DNA of 52,062 nucleotides from a virus (Duplodnaviria > Caudoviricetes): IMG/VR virus record IMGVR_UViG_3300017963_000331, positions 1 through 52,062 of that record; one strand, written 5' to 3'. Made by a program: the position numbers and the translations under genes. Under the pieces are notes generated by a model. The model ran no database searches and was not told the DNA's origin. It was given only the letters and a program-made list of their open reading frames with translations. Below are positions 2,257 to 52,062 of the stretch, in pieces. How positions within the stretch are numbered: position 1 is the stretch's first letter; the number at the start of each line of letters is the position of its first letter.

Positions 2257-2601
2257 ATGAAAGACAACAGGTTTATGTGGTACGACTGGATCTTGCTCGC
2301 AGCGTTCGCGCTGTTCCTACTGCTCTGCGGCTGCAAGCCGGTGCAGACGAAGCCGAGGGCCCGCAGTGTCAAGGTGCTTTGCTTCACGGCGGCATGGTGC
2401 GGGCCGTGCAAGTACCAGAAGTGTGACGTGCCAGATGTACTGAAAGGATACAATTGGCGGTTCGTGGACGTCGACCAGGAGCCAGCCGTGCAGAAGCACT
2501 ATGAGGTCAGGGCGGTCCCGACCTACGTCATCCTCGTCAACGGAGTAGAGAAGTCGAGGGTGCATAGCGTGAAGGATTTACGGAAAGTCATCGGGAGATA
2601 G
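2257..2601 (+). CDS. Thioredoxin-family lipoprotein
   Basis: Hydrophobic signal with lipobox-like LLLCGC, WCGPC active site, VDVD, and cis-Pro motif VPTY. Confidence 0.85.
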   Translation: MKDNRFMWYDWILLAAFALFLLLCGCKPVQTKPRARSVKVLCFTAAWCGPCKYQKCDVPDVLKGYNWRFVDVDQEPAVQKHYEVRAVPTYVILVNGVEKSRVHSVKDLRKVIGR

Positions 2602-3815: not shown

Positions 3816-4361
3816 CTACTCTGGTGGTGTGTTGAGTGATACGCCCATTATGTTGTAGGTGGCTGCTGTCGAGAAGCTATTCAGCGCGGCACGGTGGACG
3901 TTGACGCCGTACCTTCGCAGGCGAGCCTTGCAGGCTTTCGTGAGATCCTTCTCGATACCGGCCATATCAGGTAGGAGCATATCGAACGGCCATTGCGTGA
4001 TGACCTCGACGATAGCCGCCTGCGCGATGACGTCGACCATTCCGTTGACGTCGTAGTTCTTCTCTCCGCACGCTTTGATGGGGTCTGTGATCTGAAACAC
4101 GATGACCCCGCCGCACGTCACCTCAACGCTGTCCTTCGTCATGAGGGTCTGTGCAGCAAGGTCCAGCGGTTGAACCGCCGTGACGATCTCTTCGTAGTCC
4201 GTCGTCAAGGGCCAGTACCAGCGCCACCCAGGTTGCTTCACGACGACCTTGCCCCACTTCCACTTGAGCATTGCGTGCGTGTTCCGCACCACGACCGGTC
4301 GCGGCACGAAGGACAGTGCAGCCTGAATGATATCGTTTAGCCAGTCCAAGCCCGTGAACAT
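3816..4361 (-). CDS. SPFH/Band-7 domain protein
   Basis: PGWRWYWP, QTLMTKDSVEV..GGVIVFQITDP and YGVNV pattern typical of the SPFH domain. Lacks a long C-terminal coiled coil. Confidence 0.75.
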   Translation of the reverse strand: MFTGLDWLNDIIQAALSFVPRPVVVRNTHAMLKWKWGKVVVKQPGWRWYWPLTTDYEEIVTAVQPLDLAAQTLMTKDSVEVTCGGVIVFQITDPIKACGEKNYDVNGMVDVIAQAAIVEVITQWPFDMLLPDMAGIEKDLTKACKARLRRYGVNVHRAALNSFSTAATYNIMGVSLNTPPE

Positions 4362-4816
4362 TACTCGTCTCCTAGGATCGACACGATAAGCTCCATGGCA
4401 ACCTCGTGGCTGTCAACGCGGAAGCCAATCGCCTCAGAGATCATCGGGTGCTCATGCACGTTCCCTTCGGGCATGACAGCCACGACGGGGGTGCGCGTCT
4501 GGAACGCCCACGCGACTTCCATGATGGTGCCGATACTCGGCTTGGTTGCGTCCTTGAAATTGACGAGGAGGAGATCGCACTTGGTGCAGTCGTCGAAGTC
4601 CCTCGTCATGATTCCTCGCGGTGTGGCGAGTGGGTCGAAGTCGTACGACCCGTCGATAACGCCGACCTTCTTCAGGTAGGCTTTGTTGCGCATCGGCGAC
4701 CAACATTCGATGTTGCAACGCTTGAGCTGGTCGACGTAGAGGTCGCGCCAGTCGGTACACTCGCCGTACGTGCAGCCGGAGATCGGTCCAGCCAGATAAA
4801 CTTGTCGTCCTCTCAT
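4361..4816 (-). CDS. Nucleoside 2-deoxyribosyltransferase-like (NDT/RCL family) N-glycosidase
   Basis: VYLAGPISG, D..DC..CD, SIGTIMEVAWA and TPVV motifs. Confidence 0.85.
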   Translation of the reverse strand: MRGRQVYLAGPISGCTYGECTDWRDLYVDQLKRCNIECWSPMRNKAYLKKVGVIDGSYDFDPLATPRGIMTRDFDDCTKCDLLLVNFKDATKPSIGTIMEVAWAFQTRTPVVAVMPEGNVHEHPMISEAIGFRVDSHEVAMELIVSILGDE

Positions 4817-4818
4817 AA

Positions 4819-5442
4819 TTACCTCTTGGAGTTGCGTTCGTTGTAGTTACGGATGGTTCCACACTTGCGGCAGAGCCGGTGATAGTCACTGTGCTGAATG
4901 TTCGAGTGCAACGGAATGCCGCAATCCTCGCACTCGCTACTGGTGGGCCAGCCACCGCACGCGGAACAGCCGTTGCCGTTGCACACGCAAACCGGAGTGT
5001 CATCCTTCGGCGAGTCGGCAATGGTATTCTGGTGTGGGTTGTGGTCCTTGAAGAGTTCCTGCAAGTGAGCAACCTTGTCCGACAGATCGTCGATCTGGTT
5101 GGAGACTTGCGTACGCGGGGGTCGGTCGTCGACCAGCTTGCCGCAGACGTTCGCGTCAAGGATGATCGCACAACACGCCATAACGGAAGCAAGGTGCTTG
5201 ACGCGGGTCACTTGATCCTCGTCCTCGCCGTTGGTGAACTTCGCGAGGTGTCGTCTCGCGGCAGCGATGTAGATCGAGGCGCGAACGCCGTCGATTCTCC
5301 AGTTAAACTTCCCGTACTTCAGGGCGCCTTCAAGGAAGCTAGTAGCCATTTCGGCGACGGCAGTATCGGGAACGAGGTCAAGCGGAAGCTTCTTCGATCC
5401 GATGGCGTCCTTCGGGTTGGTTGGTTTAGTCTCTCTACTCAT
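4819..5442 (-). CDS. dATP/dGTP diphosphohydrolase-like (DUF5664) with a C-terminal Cys-rich Zn-binding extension
   Basis: TNPKDAIGSKKLPLDLVP, GALKYGKFNWR, AARRH, HLA and DDRP. The C-terminus has several CxxC-like pairs. Confidence 0.8.
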   Translation of the reverse strand: MSRETKPTNPKDAIGSKKLPLDLVPDTAVAEMATSFLEGALKYGKFNWRIDGVRASIYIAAARRHLAKFTNGEDEDQVTRVKHLASVMACCAIILDANVCGKLVDDRPPRTQVSNQIDDLSDKVAHLQELFKDHNPHQNTIADSPKDDTPVCVCNGNGCSACGGWPTSSECEDCGIPLHSNIQHSDYHRLCRKCGTIRNYNERNSKR

Positions 5443-7296: not shown

Positions 7297-7676
7297 GCTA
7301 GCCTCGTGATGATAAGCTCAACCCGTGGGTGTTGCTTGTCGATTAACAGGTCGGGAATGTCCCGCACCATCTTGTCGGGTGTATCGTCGCTGACGACCCC
7401 GGCATCAACGATGCCGTCGTAAGTCGACTTCAGCGAGCCCATAGCGTTGTCGACGTCGCGACCTCGCTTGGTCTTGTGGTAGAAGATCGCGTGTACGTGA
7501 CACTTCTCCCACGGCAACGTCTCACACTCCTCTTGCTCTACTGCCTCGGCAGTGACCCGGCGTTGCTTTTTGATTGCGGACGCCTTCTTAAACCGCATCC
7601 CTATTGTACCAGCAGCGCAGTTGGGTTGCAGGACTTTCGGGATGACTGGCAGGATGATTCTTATTTCTTCGTGCAT
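7293..7676 (-). CDS. rusA: RusA-like Holliday junction resolvase
   Basis: RDVDN..K...DGIVDAGVVSDD and C-terminal PRVELII. Confidence 0.8.
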   Translation of the reverse strand: MHEEIRIILPVIPKVLQPNCAAGTIGMRFKKASAIKKQRRVTAEAVEQEECETLPWEKCHVHAIFYHKTKRGRDVDNAMGSLKSTYDGIVDAGVVSDDTPDKMVRDIPDLLIDKQHPRVELIITRLA

Positions 7677-9940
7677 CTGTCCACCTCAGCCTCGAACTCC
7701 TTCATCCAGTACCAGTTCGACCTACCGACCTTGCGTGCGATAATAACCTCCTGGTCGAGGAGTGCTTGCACGACGCCCTTGAACTCTCGGAACCACGCGC
7801 TGCAATTATTCGATAGCTTGGAGTGCTGAATGCCAGCGATGCCAGCCCTTGCGACGAAATTCTTCGTTTTGATGAGATTCTTAAAGGCGCGATCGTTGCC
7901 GACTTCTGGTGCGACGCAGCGAATGAAGGAGTTGATGCAGTACCGCACGACACGGCACGCGTAGTGGGCGTCGATCCACTCGATAGTCGAGACGTCGGGG
8001 CTTCGACCGGCAGCCATGATGAGCCCGACGCGGCGAGCGAGTTCCTCTGACTTGTGCCAGAGTTCAGGATAGTGGCCGGTTGCTCCGCGCGAGAACTCAC
8101 GGAGTGCGTGGTACTCGGCTTCAGCCTCGCGGGTGGCGATGTACTCTACTGGGTTAGGAAGCTCATCCTTGCCGCTTGCGTTCGCTGGCGTGTTCATCGC
8201 GTTGATGATCGGGTCGCCTAGTTCGGTCTTGTGGACGTCGCGCAGCTTCCACGAGTGGATTACGTCAAGGATATGCTGCGGTGGGTCGCTAGCGTCGTTG
8301 CCAACATAGGTCGGGGTCGGGTCAGCCGTGAACGTCAGGACGCGAGCGATCCAGCCGTCGACAAGTTCCTCGACAGAGATACCTTCCTTGAGCCGCTCTG
8401 GAGTCGAGGTGCCGTAGAAGCTAACGCACGGCTGCACGATGACTTTCTGCTTCTCACTGTCGGCGTAGCCCTTGCCCTTGATAGTCTTGCTGGCGTTCGA
8501 GTAGAGCTGCATCATGTAGGGTATGATGCCCGCCTTGTGCTCGTTGCCGCCCTTCGTGCCCTTCAGCATATGACCCATTTCATCCCAGAGGAATAGGGTC
8601 GACGGCTCGTTGTAAATCTGAGTCTCAATTGCTGCCGGGGAGGTAACGTCGTCGCCCCCTAGGTTGTCGAAGTAGCCGGTGCGCTCAAGGATCGCGTGGA
8701 CGCCGTCCAGGGCGCCGCTCTTGCCGCACGACGATGGGCCCATGCCAAGCGTGTAGATGTTCGTGCGTGTCCCCCTGGCATCACGCACCTTGCGACCGAA
8801 GATCGTTCCAGCGAGCGACAGGGCGGCTCCCACGGCAAGCCACGGCTGCGCGTAGAGTGCCCGAGAGTTGATGTAGGCGCAGATATCGCCGATGAGCCCG
8901 TGAGGCTGACAGAGGAATTCGAGTTCCTTGTCTGGCTCGACTGGTGCGGGCTCGTGGTAAGCCGCTGGCTCTGTAGAGTACGCGGCTTGGTGTTCAAAGC
9001 CGGGCTCCGGCTCTGCTGTCTTCCCGGCGTCCATGAGCGCGTCGAAGTCGACGTCAGCTTCGGGCGGGAGACTGACGAAGTCTGGGTCGTTCAAGATCCA
9101 GCCATACGGGAACTTGTTGGATGGATTCGCCCTGGCTTGCGGAACCTTGCGCTCGAACTCGTTCCTCTGCGCAGGGTTGCCGTACTCCCACGGGTCAATG
9201 CAACGAGGGTTGTAGTGCTCCCATAGGAACGCGATAGCCTGCGAGTCAGACATGCAGAGCCCGTTGACCGCGCAGTCGGCAGCCCAAAACAGCTTGTTGT
9301 GCCCGCCCTGTCCTTCGATAGCCGGATCGACCTTCTCGAAGTAGGCGACAGCGCGACGCATGAAGTCAGGGTCGCCGACGCTGGCTGTCGAGTGGAAGAG
9401 TGTCGGCGCTGGCTTTGGTTTCTCGGATCGCTTCTTCGGCATCCACGCTGGCCAAGGTTGGATATCGACAGTCCAGGGGTTGAACTCCGGGTGCCACTCG
9501 TACTTGCCCCTAGGCCCGACCGAAGGCGGGAGGAGGACGTAGCCGCCCGTGGCTCGAATGTCGACGTCCTTCAGTATGTGGGCCGCATTGCCAATATCTT
9601 CTTCGGAAGTGAAGTATAGGTGCCAGCCGCCACGCTGCGTGATGCAGATCCAGGTGCGGGGGATCTCGCCAAGTTCTTCGATTGAAGGAAAGCCATTCTT
9701 CCCGCACGTATCGTCAACGTCAATGTCTACGACATAGACGCCGCTAGGCTTCCCGGTTGCAATCCCAATGTTCGCGGTAGGAAGGGTGTCCCACCAGTTA
9801 GCAATAGTCGCCGTGTCATTTGTTGCCTCGTCTCGCCACTTGAAACCCTTCAGCGGAATCTTGTCCCCTGGCGTCAGGGGAAAGATGTTCCACGGAGTGT
9901 TGACCGCGTAGTGCGCGGCTGCCGACTGTAGCTCGTTCAT
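7661..9940 (-). CDS. Bifunctional primase-polymerase (Prim-Pol) fused to a DUF3987-type P-loop helicase domain
   Basis: N-terminal NIGIATG, VVDID, HLYF and DIRATGGYVLLPPS. C-terminal GPSSCGKS Walker A and LFLWDE Walker B. Confidence 0.88.
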   Translation of the reverse strand: MNELQSAAAHYAVNTPWNIFPLTPGDKIPLKGFKWRDEATNDTATIANWWDTLPTANIGIATGKPSGVYVVDIDVDDTCGKNGFPSIEELGEIPRTWICITQRGGWHLYFTSEEDIGNAAHILKDVDIRATGGYVLLPPSVGPRGKYEWHPEFNPWTVDIQPWPAWMPKKRSEKPKPAPTLFHSTASVGDPDFMRRAVAYFEKVDPAIEGQGGHNKLFWAADCAVNGLCMSDSQAIAFLWEHYNPRCIDPWEYGNPAQRNEFERKVPQARANPSNKFPYGWILNDPDFVSLPPEADVDFDALMDAGKTAEPEPGFEHQAAYSTEPAAYHEPAPVEPDKELEFLCQPHGLIGDICAYINSRALYAQPWLAVGAALSLAGTIFGRKVRDARGTRTNIYTLGMGPSSCGKSGALDGVHAILERTGYFDNLGGDDVTSPAAIETQIYNEPSTLFLWDEMGHMLKGTKGGNEHKAGIIPYMMQLYSNASKTIKGKGYADSEKQKVIVQPCVSFYGTSTPERLKEGISVEELVDGWIARVLTFTADPTPTYVGNDASDPPQHILDVIHSWKLRDVHKTELGDPIINAMNTPANASGKDELPNPVEYIATREAEAEYHALREFSRGATGHYPELWHKSEELARRVGLIMAAGRSPDVSTIEWIDAHYACRVVRYCINSFIRCVAPEVGNDRAFKNLIKTKNFVARAGIAGIQHSKLSNNCSAWFREFKGVVQALLDQEVIIARKVGRSNWYWMKEFEAEVDRCTKK

Positions 9941-18086: not shown

Positions 18087-18560
18087 CTACGGTTCCTCTG
18101 CGATAATATGGCGTGATGTAAGAAGTTCATCCGTGAGACGATCAGCAAGGCGCGCGGCGTCCTGCGCAACCTCGCGCAGGAGCCTGATTGACTTGTGGAC
18201 CCGTTCCGGGTCGATCTGTTCCCACCAGTCGGAGCCGTCGAAGTCGGCGAAGTCGGGCGCCGCCTCGTCAGTCCATTCGCTGGTTAGACGGTCGCGCGCC
18301 TCTTCGGCTCCCGCCACGATAGCCGCGATCCCATTCCCGGCGCTTGGGAGGATGAAAGACACGATGGTTTTGTTGCGCACGAGCGCGAGGCGCCGCCCGT
18401 TGAGGTCGCTAAAATCGTAGACCTCATATTGCCCGGTTTTGACTTGGTTCATGAGTCGCCCACGCTCCCACCCATCAATGGGTCGATCTTCGGCACTGTT
18501 TGCGTGCCGGTAGTGTGTTGCGATCTCAAGCGCTGCTAGCTGGTCTTTCTGGCTAGTCAT
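18087..18560 (-). CDS. Hypothetical early protein
   Basis: 157 aa; ATGA overlap with the radical SAM gene. Confidence 0.65.
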   Translation of the reverse strand: MTSQKDQLAALEIATHYRHANSAEDRPIDGWERGRLMNQVKTGQYEVYDFSDLNGRRLALVRNKTIVSFILPSAGNGIAAIVAGAEEARDRLTSEWTDEAAPDFADFDGSDWWEQIDPERVHKSIRLLREVAQDAARLADRLTDELLTSRHIIAEEP

Positions 18561-19243
18561 GCCGTCACCCTCTCGCTAATGTCACGGGAACAGTAAGAAT
18601 CAAAATATCCGCTGTCGCTGTCGGGCATTTCCCACCCGTCGATAATGTGCCCCAGCTTGACCGCGTCATCACAACCGCACGCGTAGACGTCGCCGTTAGG
18701 CTTGCAAATTGGACCGTCACAAGGGCAACGGTAGTCGTCGCCTTTCTCGATGCCTAGAACAGTCGTGGCGCGTCCGTTCGCCATAGGTTCATGGTGTTCC
18801 GTTGTGTTGCGAATGCCGACGCGCGAGGGCTCCGATATCTCGCGGTAGCGGTTGTGCTCCAGTCGCACGCGCTCCGCCTCTTCTCGCCATTGCCATTCTA
18901 CCTCTTCGTCAATCGGATCATGGTAGCAATCAAGGGAGAGGTCGGCAGCAATCGCCCCGCACTTGGCCAGCCCGAACAGCATACGCGTGCGCTCCGCGTG
19001 CGTCCCGTTCGTGATTACCATAACGCCGCAAGCTTCAATCCCCGGCGCGGACATAGCAAGCAGAAGGAACTTTTCAAACTGTTTGTGTAGCGTCGGTTCT
19101 CCTCCGCCTAGCGTTATGCTCATATCAGACGCCGCGACTGCTGCGCGGAACACGCGCAGACTCATATCCTCACCTTCCGCAGTGCATGAATAGCAGCAGT
19201 GCTCACAAGACATGTTGCAACGGGTCGTGATCTGAATATACAT
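18557..19243 (-). CDS. Radical SAM protein with a C-terminal SPASM/twitch-like Cys cluster
   Basis: ITTRCNMSCEHCC (CxxxCxxC), GGGEPTLH, ITNG and C-terminal CPC...PNGDVYACGC. Likely start ATG 19243 after GAGGTG. Confidence 0.9.
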   Translation of the reverse strand: MYIQITTRCNMSCEHCCYSCTAEGEDMSLRVFRAAVAASDMSITLGGGEPTLHKQFEKFLLLAMSAPGIEACGVMVITNGTHAERTRMLFGLAKCGAIAADLSLDCYHDPIDEEVEWQWREEAERVRLEHNRYREISEPSRVGIRNTTEHHEPMANGRATTVLGIEKGDDYRCPCDGPICKPNGDVYACGCDDAVKLGHIIDGWEMPDSDSGYFDSYCSRDISERVTA

Positions 19244-19244
19244 T

Positions 19245-19451
19245 CTACACCTCGTCTTTCTGTTCAATGGTCACGAATTCGTCAAGCAGTACCGGCGCCG
19301 CATCGTTGGCGCCCACAACCTGGACCCATAGCCCCCCTTGTTCGTCTAGTTCAAGCTTGATTGACGCCGGGAACTTGCCGAGATAGTCAATCGTGATGCG
19401 CCTATCGGGCTCCTCAAGCGCGACATAGACCGGCTTGCGATGCGCCATCAT
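19245..19451 (-). CDS. Hypothetical early protein
   Basis: 68 aa packed ORF. Confidence 0.55.
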   Translation of the reverse strand: MMAHRKPVYVALEEPDRRITIDYLGKFPASIKLELDEQGGLWVQVVGANDAAPVLLDEFVTIEQKDEV

Positions 19452-23657: not shown

Positions 23658-23710
23658 GTTGGTTTGAAGAGTGTGTTGTTTGTTTCCCCTATCACTGTTT
23701 GGAGGTTGTT

Positions 23711-24010
23711 ATGTTGGTTCCCAGAAGAGATTCCGTGTTGGTCGAAATGCCAGAAGCGCCCGCCATGTCACCCGGAGGCATCGCGCTGCCGATGAACGTC
23801 AAACTCGACGAACCGGGCAAGCCCCGCGCCGGAACCGTCGTGGCGTTCGGTCGCATGACCGAAGATTACCGCAAGGGCGACAAGGTCTTCTTCACGTTCG
23901 GCTACGAAGTCGTTGAGAACGACAAGACCTACCTCGTCGTCAAGGAAGACGATATCATCGCGAAGTTCCCGCAGAAGACAGCGGCTCCCGCCCTGACTCC
24001 GCGCAAGTAG
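23711..24010 (+). CDS. groES: Co-chaperonin GroES (cpn10)
   Basis: LVPRRDSVLV, SPGGIALP mobile loop, GTVVAFG, GDKVFF and YLVVKEDDIIA. ATG 23711 after GGAGG. Confidence 0.9.
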   Translation: MLVPRRDSVLVEMPEAPAMSPGGIALPMNVKLDEPGKPRAGTVVAFGRMTEDYRKGDKVFFTFGYEVVENDKTYLVVKEDDIIAKFPQKTAAPALTPRK

Positions 24011-34311: not shown

Positions 34312-35088
34312 ATGGCTGAATCTGGACTATCACTTGGGCTGCCTGACTTCAAGGCTGAAGTCGGTGAACTCATCGGGTACGGTCGCTCCGGCTGGTCCTC
34401 TGCGCAAGAGGCGGCGATTGACCGTGTCGTGAATTCAGGCATCCGTAGGGTGTACTACCCTCCAGCAGTGCATGAGTCTGTAGTCGGCTACGAGTGGACG
34501 TGGCTACGCCCGTACACGACGCTCTCGATGGTCAGCGGAACCGAGGACTACGACCTCCCCGACGACTTCGCGAGGTTCATTGGGCCGATCCATTACCCGG
34601 CAGCAGAGTACAAGGAAGCCGTGGTCATTATCCCCACTTCGCAGATCGAGGAGTATCGGTCTGGAGTGTCGACGACCGGCTACCCGCGTTACGCGTGCGA
34701 ACGCTGGAAGTCTTCGACAGGTAGCACTGGCCAGCGGAAGGAAGTCTGCTTCTGGCCGGAGCCCGACATTACGAAGACGATGAAGTACCAGTACGAGGCG
34801 TATCAAGGCGCGTTGAGCGCCACATACCCGTACCCTCTCGGCGGCATGAAGCTCTCCGAGTTGTACATGGAAAGCTGCCTTGCGATTGTCGAGAGCCGTC
34901 TCAACGACAGCCCCGGCATCCATAATCGCGACTACGCCGCACTCCTGATCGACGCTGTTGAGCGCGACAAAAAGAACGGGGCGCAGATTTACGGAGCGAT
35001 GGGGCAGAATACGACGGAGTCCGGTAAGTTCCGCAGGGGGCATACCGGTGGAACATATTCAATCACCTACAAGGGAGAAGACGTCTGA
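34312..35088 (+). CDS. Head-tail adaptor / tail tubular protein A-like
   Basis: YEWTWL, YDLPDDF and FWPEPD pattern; typical position. Confidence 0.7.
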   Translation: MAESGLSLGLPDFKAEVGELIGYGRSGWSSAQEAAIDRVVNSGIRRVYYPPAVHESVVGYEWTWLRPYTTLSMVSGTEDYDLPDDFARFIGPIHYPAAEYKEAVVIIPTSQIEEYRSGVSTTGYPRYACERWKSSTGSTGQRKEVCFWPEPDITKTMKYQYEAYQGALSATYPYPLGGMKLSELYMESCLAIVESRLNDSPGIHNRDYAALLIDAVERDKKNGAQIYGAMGQNTTESGKFRRGHTGGTYSITYKGEDV

Positions 35089-47500: not shown

Positions 47501-48839
47501 GGTTGCCAAGGGTGAGATCGCGCGTCGCCGCAAGATCCACGCGAAGAAGAATCAGACGCGAACGCAGAAGGCTTTCTCGCATCTAGCGAAGACCGTCGAC
47601 ACCGGGCGCACGCTGATCCTTAGTCTCGACCTCCCGCTCATGCGTCAGGCGGCTACGTGGACGTTCAAGCAGGCTGCGACTGGCAACCTGAAGAAGCTGC
47701 GTGCGATGGCGAGGGACGCCGTATCGGCTGCGAGGTCTGATGAGAACCTGTTCGCGCAGATGGAGGATATCCGCAACGACGAGAATGCGGAGCACTACGA
47801 GGCAATGGGGATCGACTTCACCGACATGGCGACGGAGATCGAGCACCAGGAGGAAATGTTCGCCGGTGGTTACCTCAACGAGCTTCGCCGTAGCGGAGTG
47901 CCGGTCGTCGCGCACGCAGCCGGTGGTGTCGTCGCAACGAACCGTATGCACGTGTCAATCCTGAATCATATCCGCAAGGACTACGCTGACACGTTCCTCT
48001 ACACGATGATTCCCGGTGGTCCGCAGAACATGACCGCAGCGCAGGCGAAGATCATCGGTTCGACGATCAACTCCGCCACGGGTCGCGGTAGCCTCGGGCC
48101 GTTCGAGCAGCACGCGAGCATGATGGTCACCGTGTTCCTGGCACCCAAGTACGTCGTGTCGAGGTTCCGCACGCTGATCGAGATCCCGTTCCGCCTCGCG
48201 ACCGGCATCGGGCACACGCCCGAGACTCGGAAGTTCGTCGCGAAGGAAGTCGGCTTGACGATGGCGGGTGTTGCTGCACTGCATTCGCTAGCAGTCCTCG
48301 CGAAGCTTGGCGCCGGTGAAGAACTCGAAGAGGCGCTGCCGGAGATCGACCCGCGATCTTCCGCCGCTGGTAAGATCCAGTTCGGTAACACGACCATCGA
48401 CCCGATGTTCGGTCTGTCGCAGTCGCTCGTGTTCCCTACGCGATCATTGGCCGGTCAGTACAAGCAACGTGGCAGTGGTGAGATCAAGCCACTTCGCAAG
48501 CCGTGGATCGGCGAGGGCGAGGGTCCGGGATTCGGCGAGTTCGACATGAAGGACGTGTGGGCTGGCTTCCTCCAGTCGAAGCTGTCTCCGTGGTTGGGCT
48601 CGACGCTCGATGCCGCAGCCAAGGAAGATATCATCGGGCGTGAGGTCACGGCTGGTGGGCTCCTGGTCGGGAACACGCTACCCATCCCGATCCGCGATAT
48701 CTACAGTGCCATGAAGGCGTTGGGCGTTCCCGGTGGTACGGCGGCAGCCGTCCTAATGTGGACCGGCATGGGGATGCAGACCTACGAAGAGAGAGCGAGC
48801 GGTAAGTCCGCTCCAGATCCGTACGCGGTCACAGAGTGA
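44565..48839 (+). CDS. Large internal virion / DNA ejection protein
   Basis: ~1420 aa helical, with Gly/Ala hydrophobic helices, a PAE-rich linker and coiled coils; ATG 44565 after GGAG. Confidence 0.7.
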   Translation: MPIDKDVFDAADAILNQGARPMPREIVAGADDILKQADSQQVRMQRHAEADLKAREGRFLGSPFMRTVTMKAGATGGGLLARFTGHEDAANRVHRLSAAYTKAHQEMLKQQEFPGVDAVAQKTLQIGTEMTAQAPFIGLAAFGGAPAIIGQAAVTTADRSYTDALDAGKSPRAAAQHAIGMGVIEGGITSAFQMLGLGGVEKVLGRTAKPAMTAGVKETAKRFGITTGQELVEELSISLGQAMFEDHVTGVAPKGWERFKATAGDVALQTIFTSLAYSAPGEISNAGRQKLIDGRGKILQIANEGRAPTRKEWKSMGFSRFSGLTEQSRLDAVTEMADQLQQAYLSRLQEPEGPQMEIPQEFEAFMMEPAGPEGAPSGQQEAAPVQPEAAPVSPTSAEVQPEAAPVAPVEPVAAPEAPPAVETPTEPETLQGDETGTARRFTEALRADVELPGLEDAVPEERQQWVDDAIARGEKDPDWTDKLLNTLGNNKKRVLTKVEVAGLGIHIRKLKNDVEALREQAKSDDIYVAEQARHEMAEAIHQINLVTEKTKGGLTENARALNAAALAFSKDFTFSTIAAREAAEKGAPLNRKEINEISRLTDLIAKKDKTIAQLEENVRTSSVATAVRDARRRGGVKRPSRKKVQKQKKVRDAISAFKSVAFEGGKLADFVKAEAGAFNIDAILAGVKVIEAAVDLGATTFSEFWAENVSDLGFEARALFKSAWGKAQHDGIIPQMAFRKDNYADIAKYARKMLNAVVDGGVVDTDEVIAEVHEEMSKVVADFTKANTIDAITGQGNFKPGKRGRTAAQQAVADIKQQLKLQRELESIEAGAVPTTTPRTPKQDAPAVAALKNEIADAKANSQNIADDKARRAENARIAKLEQKLADVQAGKVELPARKAKAEDSDAVKNLKKQLKEAEDTSPVLKRMRAARREGDYTETLERQLADYQRRLDEDDIQPTPTRPTPTSDRIKQLKHEVEVAKGEIARRRKIHAKKNQTRTQKAFSHLAKTVDTGRTLILSLDLPLMRQAATWTFKQAATGNLKKLRAMARDAVSAARSDENLFAQMEDIRNDENAEHYEAMGIDFTDMATEIEHQEEMFAGGYLNELRRSGVPVVAHAAGGVVATNRMHVSILNHIRKDYADTFLYTMIPGGPQNMTAAQAKIIGSTINSATGRGSLGPFEQHASMMVTVFLAPKYVVSRFRTLIEIPFRLATGIGHTPETRKFVAKEVGLTMAGVAALHSLAVLAKLGAGEELEEALPEIDPRSSAAGKIQFGNTTIDPMFGLSQSLVFPTRSLAGQYKQRGSGEIKPLRKPWIGEGEGPGFGEFDMKDVWAGFLQSKLSPWLGSTLDAAAKEDIIGREVTAGGLLVGNTLPIPIRDIYSAMKALGVPGGTAAAVLMWTGMGMQTYEERASGKSAPDPYAVTE

Positions 48840-48864
48840 CAAGCGACCCCCAGTATGGTAGGAT
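48836..48864 (+). promoter_or_regulatory. Sigma70-type promoter, probably leaderless, for the peptidase module
   Basis: GTGACA, 17 nt, (TGG)TAGGAT, 6 nt, ATG 48871. Confidence 0.6.
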
Positions 48865-48870
48865 ATTGGC

Positions 48871-49494
48871 ATGAGCTACGAAGACATGAAACCCGGCGAC
48901 ATTATCGGATTCTCCGGCGCAGGCTGGATCAGCTCCGGTATCAATGTGGTGACCTACGGCTTGCCGTGGTGGTCTATCTCTCACGTTGGGATCATCGGTG
49001 AGGATGTAACGCACCCTCGTACCGATGTTGCTCTCTACAAGGAATTCGAGCTGCCTCTATTGCTGTTCGAGTCCACCGAGTTCCCGAACCAGGAGCCGTG
49101 CGAAATTACCCGTGAGCCGATCTGCGGCACGCAGGCGCACGACTGTCGCTGGGTCGTGAACCAGTACAAGGGTGCAGCGTGGCACTACAAGCTCACGAGG
49201 GAGCTGTACCCTCACGAGAGAGCACGACTGTCGAGGTATCTCAATGCGACGTGCGGCACTCCTTATGACGTCCTCGGCGCAATGAGGTCGGGAGGGATGC
49301 TATTTGCTTGGGCTGAGGCGTTGTTCAGAACGCAGAACGCGAACAAGCTTTTCTGTTCCGAGTGGGTAGCCGCTGCCGCACAAAACGTCGGCATCTTGCA
49401 GACGTCGTCTTTCTCGGGATGGTCCCCTAACTATCTCGTTCGCTACTTACGCAGGATGGGTTGGTTGCACAAGCCAGAGAGGCTACCAAGATGA
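48871..49494 (+). CDS. Permuted papain-like NlpC/P60 (YiiX/YaeF, C92) enzyme
   Basis: PGDII, SHVGI (His before Cys), GTPYD and LFCSEWVA. Confidence 0.85.
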   Translation: MSYEDMKPGDIIGFSGAGWISSGINVVTYGLPWWSISHVGIIGEDVTHPRTDVALYKEFELPLLLFESTEFPNQEPCEITREPICGTQAHDCRWVVNQYKGAAWHYKLTRELYPHERARLSRYLNATCGTPYDVLGAMRSGGMLFAWAEALFRTQNANKLFCSEWVAAAAQNVGILQTSSFSGWSPNYLVRYLRRMGWLHKPERLPR

Positions 49495-50144
49495 AGCGTG
49501 GAACGGAATTGCTAGTGCCTGTCGCCATTGTTGTCGCTGCGGTGATCGTCGTCACATATGATGGCGATAACCCTCTCGGCGCCATCACATATGGTGACAA
49601 GGCAGTCCTCGAACGACCGGTCGTGAACATACCCCACAAGCTCCGCCAAGGCAATTGGCTTAGGCGCGGCACCAGGGCTGACGGTTCATGCTGTCACGCA
49701 GCTTTTATTTCGTTGCTGCGATGGCAAGGACAGTACCGTCTGGCTGACAGGTGGCGACGTCAACATTCAGGTGGCGAGTATACGTTCACGATGATGGAAG
49801 AACTCGACGACGCAGATGTTCCGTACGCGTGGTGTCAGAACGGAGACGTCGGCTTCCTTGAGTGGGCGATCCGCACGAGGCGGGGAGCATGTATCCAGTA
49901 CATGGACGATCCGAAGCGGTTCATGAGTCTACCGAAGAACAAAAGATGCTATCATATGGTGAATCTGGTCGATCTGACGCCCAAGTACGCCTGCATCCTT
50001 GACAACAACGACCCCCGTAGATTCAAATGGATGGACCGCGATCAATTCCTCTGGAATTGGAAAGCGTCCGAAGGTTGGGCTTTCACGCCCGTTTATTCAC
50101 CGGCAGCTCCGCTGCCTCCCCGTTACAGAAGGGATACGTTATGA
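49491..50144 (+). CDS. Membrane-anchored/exported papain-fold (C39-like) cysteine peptidase
   Basis: N-terminal hydrophobic helix; Q...GSCCHAA, HMVNLV and ILDNN give Cys-His-Asp order. Confidence 0.7.
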   Translation: MKRGTELLVPVAIVVAAVIVVTYDGDNPLGAITYGDKAVLERPVVNIPHKLRQGNWLRRGTRADGSCCHAAFISLLRWQGQYRLADRWRRQHSGGEYTFTMMEELDDADVPYAWCQNGDVGFLEWAIRTRRGACIQYMDDPKRFMSLPKNKRCYHMVNLVDLTPKYACILDNNDPRRFKWMDRDQFLWNWKASEGWAFTPVYSPAAPLPPRYRRDTL

Positions 50145-50800
50145 ATCCTCGTTTCAAGATTGGCTTGGTAGGGGCGATCATCGTCGCTCTTGCTTGCGTC
50201 TGCTTCGCAGGCGAAACCCAGGAGCGTGTTGCTCCTCCGAATGACGCAGACGTACTGCACCTGTCAGTCGTTGGCATCGTCAACAACGCCGATTACCAAC
50301 GCGTACTGTCCTGGTTCCAGAATGACGCAGACCTCGCGTCGCTCCGCAAGGGAACCCACTTCCACGCCGTCAAGGCTGGCTCCGCGATCTATGATGAACG
50401 ATACCGACCCAACATCAAAGGGCTGCCGACAGTCCGCTTGCAGAATGCTAAGGGGGTCATTCTCTACGAGAGTGCCGGTGCAGCGATTCCGAAGTCGCCC
50501 TCCGAACTCCTGAATGCCATTGCAAGCAAGACGGGGCAGGTATTCGACCCTCCGCTTCTACCGTGGCGACGCAAGATCCAGAACAACTGCGACAACGGTC
50601 AGTGCGGCCCGCAGCAAGAGTTCACGCCCGAGGAGATCATGGAGGAGGAGTTCAGTTTCGGTGAGCCGCCCCTGCCGTTCAGTGAGCCTGAACCGGAGCC
50701 CGCTGTCCCCGCGTGGGTGATCGTCGTATTGGCGCTGGCATCGGCGCTTGGTGGCGGGGTTGGAGCCGTGATCGGTTCCGTGAAGAAAGAAATGGGCTGA
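50141..50800 (+). CDS. Exported thioredoxin-fold-like protein lacking CxxC, with a C-terminal TM anchor
   Basis: Signal peptide, KGLPTVRLQ..GVILYE (cis-Pro region of the Trx fold), CDNGQC, Pro/Glu linker and C-terminal hydrophobic helix. Confidence 0.55.
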   Translation: MNPRFKIGLVGAIIVALACVCFAGETQERVAPPNDADVLHLSVVGIVNNADYQRVLSWFQNDADLASLRKGTHFHAVKAGSAIYDERYRPNIKGLPTVRLQNAKGVILYESAGAAIPKSPSELLNAIASKTGQVFDPPLLPWRRKIQNNCDNGQCGPQQEFTPEEIMEEEFSFGEPPLPFSEPEPEPAVPAWVIVVLALASALGGGVGAVIGSVKKEMG

Positions 50801-50807
50801 CCCACAC

Positions 50808-50864
50808 ACGGGGTGCCTTCGGGATGCTGCGGCATAGGGTTCACGCCCTCCCCCGTATTTTGTT
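50808..50864 (+). ncRNA. Compact four-way-junction RNA element / atypical terminator
   Basis: Outer ACGGGG/CCCCGT encloses CC-TTCG-GG, ATGC-TGCG-GCAT and AGGGT-TCAC-GCCCT; ATTTTGTT follows. Confidence 0.4.
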
Positions 50865-50906
50865 CGTTCACAACTACCTACCTGTTTTCGTGAAAGAGAC
50901 TCTACT

Positions 50907-51293
50907 ATGACTCCTGTTGAAATCGTTTTGCTCTGTCTGTTGTGCGCCGGTGCCTGCTGGGTCGTCGGTAAGAAGCTGTTCGAGAAGGACACCGAGATCG
51001 AAGGTCGTCGCCGTGGAGCTGGCCAGCTCGCTATCGCACTCGGCAAGTACGGACTGAAACGTATCCCGGACTTCCTTGTCGACTACTCCGTTGGCGACTA
51101 CTCCGGCTGCGCCGTGAAGATCAAGCAACTCGCCGATCTGTTCCTGTCCGGTGAGACTGCGATCACCGAGGAATTCGACGGCGTGTTCAAACAAGTCTTG
51201 TTCAACAAGATGCAGACCGTCGAGGGCCGCGCCTTCGTCGATGCGATCTTGAAAGAAGCAAGAGAAGCGGTGGGCGAAGCGAAGCCCGAATAA
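50907..51293 (+). CDS. Membrane-anchored hypothetical protein
   Basis: N-terminal TM helix containing Cys residues, then a helical soluble domain. Confidence 0.7.
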   Translation: MTPVEIVLLCLLCAGACWVVGKKLFEKDTEIEGRRRGAGQLAIALGKYGLKRIPDFLVDYSVGDYSGCAVKIKQLADLFLSGETAITEEFDGVFKQVLFNKMQTVEGRAFVDAILKEAREAVGEAKPE

Positions 51294-51327
51294 GTAGTAC
51301 GACGCGACGCGACAAACCTTTGGACCG

Positions 51328-51368
51328 ACAGCTCGCTCGACTCAGTCGGGCGGGCTGTTTCTCATTTA
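51328..51368 (+). terminator. Intrinsic terminator
   Basis: 14-bp stem ACAGCTCGCTCGAC/GTCGGGCGGGCTGT (two G-U pairs), then TTCTCATTT. Confidence 0.65.
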
Positions 51369-51384
51369 CTTGGAGAACGATCCT

Positions 51385-52062
51385 ATGGCTAATTACCGAC
51401 CACTCGTCATCGTTGCCGGTCAGGTCATGCAACTATCTGACTCTGACGTCCTCTACTGCGAGGACGCGACCGTAAACGATTACCTCAACGTCAACGGCTC
51501 GATAGCGGTCGGCAACATGGGCCTAGCCGGGACTACGTTCTCGTGCTCCGGTGTCCTCGGAATCGACGCGTCCTTCGGTGTCCTGATCGGCGACACCGCG
51601 TCTTCGTACCAGGGGCAGCTCTCAGTCAACGCGGACAGGAGCGGCTCTGGTATCCAGATGGCGCAGTCGTATGAGGGCACGATAACCTCGACGGACAGCC
51701 ACGCGTACGGATCGTGGCACAATACCGAACTCGTCCCGGCGAACAACCAGAACGTGTACGGCACCGTGTGGTCCTGGCAGGTTGACTCTGGCGCCGCGAA
51801 TACGATTGCTGAGGTAAACGCAGCGTATGTCGGCGGAGTATCCGACAACGGAACCGGAACGGTCAACACGTGTATCGGATTGCGGCTCAAGACCCAGAAC
51901 GCCGGGTCGCTAGCAAACTGGTCGCTCTACTGCGAGGGCGACGCGTACTTCGGCTCTGACGTTGTCTTCGGGGCGTTCACGCTGACGTACCCGACCGCTG
52001 ACAACCAGATCCTACAAGCGACCGGCCGACACTGCCGCATGGACGACGGACATTGAGGGGCT
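51385..52062 (+). CDS. Tail fibre/tailspike N-terminal part; apparent frameshift near 52027, then continues into base 1
   Basis: ATG 51385 after GGAG. Frame 1 reads ..ADNQILQATG and frame 2 continues ADTAAWTTDIEG-L-DEITING across the junction. Confidence 0.7.

Follow-up and report, generated by a model that had tools for sequence, protein, structure and literature searches.

We describe here a conserved block of phage genes, A207, B217, C219 and D128, which, together with the thioredoxin gene T and in this phage probably the small membrane-protein gene H80, we read as a Planctomycetota-specific lysis module in which an exported peptidase would work with a thiol-redox partner (rough probability 0.55). 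The genes lie in a complete virus record of 52,062 bp (IMG/VR record IMGVR_UViG_3300017963_000331; class linear, CheckV completeness 100), the whole of which is referred to below as the window, and which Pfam and PHROGs searches of its 57 open reading frames (ORFs) identify as the genome of a tailed phage. The reading draws on the synteny, mobility and host specificity of the genes, the lack of any canonical endolysin, the resemblance of B217 to wall-lytic peptidases, the predicted topologies, the displacement of B and C by another protease in one lineage, and the ATGA overlaps at both the A/B and the B/C junctions, which suggest coupled translation. Coordinates are collected in Table 1, and A, B, C, D and T without numbers denote the gene families.

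A five-gene block shared by two phage groups

A207, B217, C219 and D128 are real genes rather than chance ORFs, as judged from their database relatives (295 for A207 and 64 for B217 at E ≤ 0.001) and from the synteny of all four in about 90 other loci; the sequence-only reading that had first singled out the block, before any database search, had placed these ORFs correctly. None of the four has a Pfam match at E ≤ 0.1. Relatives were collected by an alignment-based scan with the A family, which gave the best 80 of 146 viral loci, and by a genome scan, which gave another 24 (104 loci in total); a scan of viral contigs with the single A207 sequence returned no loci. When the 57 window proteins were compared with the 104 loci by tblastn, A was found in 99, B in 94, C in 91, D in 75 and the thioredoxin in 63, and structural or replication genes of the window in at most about a dozen. 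Counting with family hidden Markov models was restricted to the 93 loci that hold A and at least 4.5 kb downstream of it. All five genes occur together in 79 of these, so that the co-occurrence of the C39-like, thioredoxin and YiiX-type genes, which the sequence-only reading had proposed to examine, is borne out; A-B-C-D was found in seven loci, A-B and T in two, A, D and T in two, and A-B-C, A and D, and A alone in one each. The five-gene loci are collinear and on one strand in 79 of 81 cases.

On this gene order T is the fifth gene of the block, since it directly follows D in the relatives and 79 of the 93 loci hold all five genes. In the podovirus relatives L047, L066 and L074, D is followed by T directly with no fibre gene between them, and hence the fibre genes that separate D128 from T in the window are peculiar to it. 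Most loci belong to a second group, in which a gpA-type large terminase gene begins about 200 nt after T and is followed by portal-sized and P22-type coat genes. The cassette of this group sits just upstream of the large terminase gene, in the classical lambdoid lysis position, and serine recombinase genes are found further upstream. The block is, by these comparisons, common to two unrelated phage groups and appears to be a mobile module. Since their flanks carry terminase, coat and serine recombinase genes, the loci from metagenome-assembled genomes are prophages. The strong genome loci come in 17 of 19 cases from genomes named Planctomycetota (Thermoguttaceae, Pirellulales, Planctomycetaceae), the other two being named 'uncultured archaeon' and 'bacterium', while five weak, partial genome matches belong to Neisseriaceae or Gallionellaceae. 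Genome names thus support Planctomycetota as the hosts, for the window's own phage by way of its cassette relatives, and the earlier guess of a planctomycete host proved apt.

Several smaller observations concern the layout of these loci. An ORF resembling homing endonucleases (HNH_3 and AP2) lies between A and B in L003 (10567-11055), and the otherwise tight A/B junction is also split, by gaps of about 0.5 kb, in L002, L010, L014, L042 and others. Between the thioredoxin and large terminase genes of the terminase-adjacent group lies the gene of a small conserved protein whose sequence starts MARRRCRNCPD (L002:5706-5933, L004:12896-13165 and equivalents); the protein has no membrane segment, the one copy tested has no Pfam match, and it could be a small terminase subunit or a zinc-ribbon regulator.

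B217, a predicted exported papain-like peptidase

According to its structure model (predicted local distance difference test score, pLDDT, 88.2), B217 has a papain-like fold. Across 39 B sequences C67 and H155 are invariant and D171 and N173 are conserved in at least 90%, in the Cys-His-Asp/Asn catalytic order. The best matches among solved structures are C39-like proteins, namely 3erv from Bacillus anthracis (VIA Z 15.1, root mean square deviation 3.1 over 157 residues; Foldseek E 1.2e-4; B profile E 0.0016) and the C39 domains of ComA and PCAT1 (Z about 12); a papain-like toxin (Z 13.7) and the pseudomurein endoisopeptidase PeiR (PDB 8z4n/8z4h; Z 13.1-13.2 over 141-142 residues) lie between them. 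A PDB sequence search with the single B217 protein gave no match, and Pfam Peptidase_C39 matches B217 not at all and only one of 39 relatives (E 0.029). The protein has an N-terminal transmembrane helix in the window, and 73 of 94 B homologs carry a lipobox-like signal. The sequence-only description of B217 as a membrane-anchored, C39-like Cys-His-Asp peptidase therefore stands. B217 differs from the bacteriocin-processing C39 domains in that it has no double-glycine substrate context and that no ABC transporter gene was found among its neighbours, either in the window or in the scanned flanks.

Among viral models in BFVD, the closest to the B217 fold are cysteine-peptidase domains of actinophage and cyanophage endolysins, including the endolysin of Gordonia phage OneUp (E 8.8e-5), cyanophage 'lysozyme' entries and mycobacteriophage Lysin A, at E values from 8.8e-5 to 1.6e-3. 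Identity to these enzymes is 11-15%, and B217, whose activity is predicted, differs from them in that it consists of one domain, carries a Sec or lipoprotein signal and has neither a cell-wall-binding nor a glycosidase domain. PeiR offers a further parallel as a Cys-His-Asp papain-like wall-lytic enzyme for a non-standard wall, although its identity to B217 is 6-8%, its host is archaeal and its substrate is pseudomurein; we know of no thioredoxin partner of PeiR. Given these likenesses, the sequence-only claim that the block acts 'instead of a classical endolysin' was too strong, since the fold of B is that of the cysteine-peptidase domains of known endolysins and of the pseudomurein endoisopeptidase.

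A profile of B run over 401 genomes sampled from the phylum, with seven candidates scored per genome, matched the centre genome only, in two copies, so that carriers are rare in that sample. B copies were located in the Thermoguttaceae genome G033, the host of L088, at C4:904165-904707 and C1:1295403-1295990, with one stop codon in each match span; as the two copies lie on different contigs, this genome probably carries two cassette-bearing prophages.

A207, a permuted NlpC/P60 hydrolase

In the alignment of 40 A sequences H38, E67, S68 and C162 are invariant, and His38 precedes Cys162, which is the circularly permuted order; in the match of the A profile to PDB 3kw0 (BcYiiX; E 0.006) the two residues line up with its His and Cys motifs. 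The assignment of A207 to the permuted, YiiX-type NlpC/P60 enzymes, made from its sequence before any search, is thereby upheld. With the YaeF/YiiX enzymes and the toxin Tox-Act1 it shares the His-then-Cys order and the ES and CSE motifs, but it differs in lying below every curated threshold: NCBIfam YaeF (NF008552) matches it at E 0.0068 and 15.5 bits against a cut-off of 279, and PF05708 (Peptidase_C92) matches two of 40 relatives, with a best E of 0.007. In the Atlas, A207 has a model with a predicted TM-score of 0.74, and in the nearest clusters (feature score 0.96, TM-scores 0.67-0.72) 29-31% of the members carry PF05708. A PDB sequence search with the single A207 protein returned a chance-level match only. 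No transmembrane or hydrophobic segment was found in 95 of 99 A homologs, as expected of a cytoplasmic enzyme.

The YaeF/YiiX members and Tox-Act1 studied so far bind or cleave lipids, and PMC3142127 describes lipid action, with a hydrophobic S1 pocket or a lipid substrate, for the family. Since its family is reported to act on lipids, the targets of A207 may by analogy be membranes or lipoprotein anchors and not murein. Our literature search, which covered parts of the sources, found no YaeF/YiiX member reported as a phage lysis enzyme.

Two other leads on A207 were set aside. The phrog_1128 label 'enoyl-CoA hydratase-like' (4.8e-13) misfits its Cys and His motifs, and the NlpC/P60 endolysin of a Neisseria prophage, considered as a precedent, is described as a canonical Cys-then-His enzyme and not a permuted one. 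In Neisseriaceae genomes a 158-aa ORF (L102:9740-10216, Eikenella; also in L101, L103 and L104), flanked by ORFs of 209 aa and 405 aa, the latter of P-loop type, has the permuted order seen in A207 (SHAEI, then FCSEWCAAA) and may, from its motifs, be a shorter A relative in other prophages.

C219 and T, two proteins of thioredoxin fold

C219 is made up of a signal peptide, a thioredoxin fold, a conserved LPWRR motif, a CDNGQC pair, an acidic and Pro-rich linker and a C-terminal transmembrane helix. Its model (pLDDT 79.8 overall, 94-98 in the core) shows a beta-alpha-beta-alpha-beta-beta-alpha thioredoxin core at residues 40-131, and Foldseek returned 45 PDB matches at E ≤ 0.001, thioredoxins first (E about 1e-4). 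The N-terminus of helix 1 has no CxxC; the window sequence there is GIVNNAD and the consensus VVGxxxD, without a conserved Cys, and we consider the domain, on its sequence, to be redox-dead. The sequence-only reading was right that C219 is an exported thioredoxin-fold protein with a membrane anchor, but CDNGQC, which it had associated with that fold, is not the thioredoxin active site: the pair lies outside the active-site position, in the low-confidence linker of the model, and is only partly conserved, with a Cys at the corresponding column (window column 150) in 33 of 55 C homologs and at least two linker cysteines in 32 of 55. Hydrophobic segments occur at both ends in 63 of 91 C homologs. 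The combination of an N-terminal signal with a C-terminal transmembrane helix in C219 resembles the layout of a unimolecular spanin, but the signal looks to be of the signal-peptidase I type.

T matches Pfam Thioredoxin (PF00085) at E 1.2e-9, with 38.5 bits against a cut-off of 23.5. In an alignment of 45 sequences C48, C51 and the cis-proline P88 are invariant and the G25-C26 lipobox is present in at least 90%, while WCxxC was found in all 63 extracted homologs and a lipobox-like signal in 50 of 63. The description of this gene as a WCGPC thioredoxin lipoprotein, also made from the sequence alone, thus holds. TlpA, ResA and CcmG are membrane-anchored periplasmic thioredoxin-like reductants, and T resembles them in being a predicted exported, anchored CxxC thioredoxin but differs in being phage-encoded and in belonging to a cassette with a peptidase. 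The thiol-activated signal-arrest-release (SAR) endolysin Lyz of phage P1 is a precedent for redox control of an exported lysis enzyme. The parallel is incomplete, in that C67 is the only invariant cysteine of B and no second conserved Cys is available in B217 for a caging disulfide.

Replacement of B and C by a serine protease

In L076, L078 and L079, which represent one lineage with identical sequences, B and C are missing and a single 367-aa protein is encoded instead, while A, D and a thioredoxin with CDPC are kept. The substitute begins with a transmembrane segment and continues through a Trypsin_2 domain (8.5e-11, over the cut-off) and a Pro-rich linker to a C-terminal helix that resembles the one in C. 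For this protease family 90 relatives were found, several under the name Thermoguttaceae, and 36 viral loci contain it; it adjoins A in L114/L115 and L128, D in L118, L119 and L123, and a thioredoxin in L126/L127 and L134. A near-invariant Cys pair, C257 and C262, follows the protease domain in 26-27 of 27 sequences. When the C and serine-protease families were compared by hhalign, a single match of 63 columns emerged (probability 89.7%, E 1.9e-6); it spans the domain end and a PW motif and not the Cys pair, the linker or the transmembrane helix, and it gives weak support to a C-terminal module shared by the two families.

The exchange of B and C for a tethered protease argues that the activity conserved is that of an exported, tethered peptidase, and their joint replacement suggests that B and C behave as one unit. 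Moreover, since T is kept beside the serine protease, it is not merely a protector of the catalytic thiol of B.

Search for ordinary endolysins, and the holin candidates

The sequence-only reading had recognised no muramidase, Zn-amidase or spanin, and in line with this no lysozyme, amidase or spanin family was detected in the 57 window ORFs by Pfam and PHROGs, with NCBIfam applied to 13 of the 57. PF00959 (Phage_lysozyme) was found in none of 31 cassette-bearing viral records, and PF01510 (Amidase_2), PF01464 (SLT), PF13539 (Peptidase_M15_4), PF00182 (Glyco_hydro_19) and PF01520 (Amidase_3) each in none of 32, the 31-32 searched records including 13 or 14 that are at least 90% complete. Likewise, no canonical endolysin was recognised among the 120 flank ORFs of 11 loci. 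A lipobox scan of the window gave no spanin-like lipoprotein besides T and possibly C219, T being the only clear lipoprotein. The window ORF at 4819-5442 has a phrog_2252 label, 'endolysin; inhibits RNA polymerase', and was rejected as an endolysin, as Pfam identifies it as the N-terminal domain of a dATP/dGTP diphosphohydrolase (6e-25).

In D128 one N-terminal transmembrane helix precedes a basic stretch, after which comes a conserved soluble domain; the helix is present in 72 of 75 homologs, in keeping with the earlier description of the last ORF of the block as another membrane protein. A profile search found 474 unnamed representatives of the D family at E ≤ 0.001, and the Atlas holds no D128 structure and gives feature scores of at most 0.77. 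H80 has one transmembrane segment at a hydropathy threshold of 1.6 and a second, weaker one as judged by eye. Its homologs follow the thioredoxin in L066 and L076, tblastn matches occur in three of the 104 loci, and conservation is confined to the podovirus group.

A putative lysis mechanism and its alternatives

The topologies of the cassette, with one cytoplasmic enzyme and exported or tethered partners, fit a lysis set. As in lambda-type lysis cassettes, the block is compact, co-oriented and, in the larger phage group, placed beside the terminase; it combines a single cytoplasmic enzyme with small membrane proteins, with a periplasmic protein anchored in the inner membrane and with outer lipoproteins, and no other lysis genes are detectable. 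It differs from them in that it has no muramidase, transglycosylase or amidase, its enzymes are cysteine hydrolases, two thioredoxin-fold proteins are an integral part of it, and no pair of a coiled-coil i-spanin and a short Pro-rich o-spanin was recognised in it. Cysteine-peptidase endolysins and lysis cassettes as such are already known. In the parts of the literature available to our search, we found no description of a cassette with two thioredoxin-fold proteins and a permuted NlpC/P60 enzyme but without glycosidase or amidase, and no paper on how phages lyse planctomycetes.

We propose that B, C and T would be exported by Sec during late expression and held waiting in the periplasm, B anchored by a lipid or a transmembrane helix, T by a lipid, and C, with its long Pro-rich stalk, fixed to the inner membrane through the C-terminal helix. 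B would be the wall-opening papain-fold cysteine endopeptidase, most simply cutting peptidoglycan stem peptides or cross-links. T would serve as the CxxC reductant of the B/C unit, either keeping its thiols reduced in the oxidising periplasm or opening the Cys pair of the C stalk. A, which has no export signal, would reach the envelope only after a holin has opened the inner membrane and, by analogy with its family, would then hydrolyse an amide or acyl-ester bond in a lipid, a lipoprotein or a muropeptide; H80 and/or D may be that holin or a regulator. Were this so, a thiol-redox component would be added to the repertoire of lysis systems, and three unannotated families, C, D and the permuted NlpC/P60 branch of A, would receive a first function. 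Moreover, a conserved and host-specific cassette provides named enzymes as probes of the envelope; the targets of B, of the serine protease and of T would be what holds that envelope together.

A bolder version, which we regard as speculative and rather unlikely, is that B or the serine protease, together with C and T, forms a pre-positioned, periplasm-spanning, redox-gated protease machine that replaces a SAR-type endolysin and spanins. At triggering, T would reduce the stalk Cys pair and/or disulfides of the host envelope, the protease would dismantle the protein or peptidoglycan wall and its links to the outer membrane, and A, released by the holin, would attack lipid or lipoprotein anchors. 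If true, this would be a lysis strategy tailored to the envelope of the Planctomycetes-Verrucomicrobia-Chlamydiae (PVC) group and the first lysis pathway to depend on a thioredoxin encoded by the phage.

Several points weigh against a lysis module. The case is built from context and fold, with activity, expression timing and phenotype all predicted. The matches of A and B to curated families all lie under the family thresholds. The structural neighbours of B217 include antibacterial papain-like toxins and bacteriocin-processing C39 domains, so that the fold alone gives no substrate, and a trypsin-like substitute for B and C fits a protein substrate better than stem peptides with D-amino acids. 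PMC12994826 reports that the permuted NlpC/P60 family acts on lipids and not on peptidoglycan. The D family has no known relative, with none of 45 remote relatives over a Pfam cut-off and no informative PHROG in 51 members, and the larger phage group has no recognised holin, its thioredoxin gene being followed by that for a small non-membrane protein and then by the terminase. The endolysin search over the relatives covered six families, so that a novel glycosidase is possible among the many unannotated ORFs, and the absence of PF00182 is weak since its GH19 control search was silent. Furthermore, loci were counted without de-replication and several are near-identical, the distinct sequences numbering 86 for B, 84 for C, 67 for D and 58 for T.

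In a version of the sequence-only reading, B (or the serine protease), C and T would be directed at a disulfide-bonded protein layer or at outer-membrane tethers rather than at peptidoglycan, with T reducing, the protease cutting, and A or another enzyme handling a thin peptidoglycan. Trypsin_2 proteases normally cut proteins, and T both is kept where the serine protease stands in place of B and C and adjoins the protease in L126/L127 and L134; its retention there is compatible with the reduction of envelope disulfides without demonstrating it. The cassette was found only in Planctomycetota-named genomes, for which older work (PMC2754498) reported a disulfide-bonded sacculus made of protein, and PMC5814848 describes planctomycete peptidoglycan as scarce and hard to detect. 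Five of five carrier genomes hold murE, however, four of them over the cut-off; the hosts are, by this gene content, not wall-less, peptidoglycan would still have to be breached, and its stem peptides make for a simpler target than a sacculus of protein would. The viral structural neighbours of B are peptidoglycan-directed endolysins, the stalk Cys pairs of C and of the serine protease provide an internal target that would explain the retention of T with no host substrate, and the host substrate itself is hypothetical. We therefore hold a protein-layer target to be doubtful, although worth keeping in mind.

That the cassette is instead an envelope-remodelling or superinfection-exclusion module, expressed from prophages as lysogenic conversion, seems to us improbable. 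Many carriers are proviruses by IMG/VR class and by their recombinases, exported lipoproteins are typical of exclusion systems, and no holin was recognised in the larger group. Yet the cassette is equally present in the window's phage, where Pfam and PHROGs detected no integrase; its genes run in the direction of late genes and stand where these do, just ahead of the terminase; both hydrolases that it encodes keep their catalytic residues, and one of them has no export signal; and the phages would then be left with no lysis enzyme at all. Least probable of all is a role of A, B, C and T as virion-associated entry enzymes or fibre-assembly helpers, an alternative raised already by the sequence-only reading and suggested by the position of the block in the window, between the gene for the 1438-aa internal-virion-like protein and the fibre ORFs. 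This neighbourhood is not that of the relatives, as the block of the larger group abuts the terminase, far from the tail genes, and L047, L066 and L074 have no fibre gene between D and the thioredoxin. In addition, the lipoprotein signals of B and T and the cleavable signal of C point to proteins that are exported and not packaged.

Other features of the window

The positions of the cassette genes and of their surroundings are given in Table 1. The sequence-only reading had called the block separately promoted, but promoter-like sites between 48000 and 52062 are at chance level (two observed against 1.3 ± 1.3 in shuffled sequence). It had also placed T one fibre gene further 'on the circle', whereas the record is classed linear and, were it closed to an exact circle, the fibre-like ORFs that meet at its ends (51370-52056 and 2-2254) would not share a frame; the second fibre frame is open from 51986 and has no start codon before 104. 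This junction could reflect a frameshift, a missing base or two separate genes.

Table 1. Coordinates of the cassette genes and of neighbouring features in the 52,062-bp window
Feature	Position	Strand	Remarks
SU10-type adaptor	34312-35088		From Pfam/PHROGs
Internal-virion-like gene, 1438 aa	44523-48839		Ends 32 nt upstream of A207
Promoter-like site GTGACA-17-TAGGAT	48836-48864	+	7 nt 5' of A207; 9/12 matches; weak
A207, predicted cytoplasmic permuted NlpC/P60 (YaeF/YiiX-like, C92-like) Cys-His hydrolase	48871-49494	+
B217, predicted exported, membrane-tethered papain/C39-like Cys-His-Asp peptidase	49491-50144	+
C219, predicted exported pseudo-thioredoxin with C-terminal transmembrane anchor	50141-50800	+
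D128, single-pass membrane protein, function unassigned, candidate holin or lysis regulator	50907-51293	+
Terminator-like hairpin, 15-pair stem, strong	51327-51359	+	3' of D128, closes the A-D block
T, predicted exported thioredoxin lipoprotein, WCGPC	2257-2601	+	Fifth cassette gene, set apart here by fibre genes
H80, 80-aa small membrane protein with charged C-terminal tail, holin candidate	2604-2846	+

The minus strand of the window carries, according to Pfam and PHROGs, the terminase gene, a major-head-like gene and a replication module. Three genes at 4361-5442 (-) and 18557-19267 (-) hint at nucleotide or DNA modification; they encode a protein with the dATP/dGTP diphosphohydrolase N-terminal domain PF18909, a nucleoside 2-deoxyribosyltransferase-like protein and a radical SAM protein. 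An SPFH/Band 7 protein (PF01145, 1.4e-16) is encoded near the cassette at 3816-4361 (-), and of the other 11 loci scanned only L003 has one, a larger protein (7320-8432, 3.1e-34) about 1.5 kb upstream of its cassette. A GroES-like co-chaperonin (Cpn10, 3.1e-11) is encoded at 23699-24010 (+).

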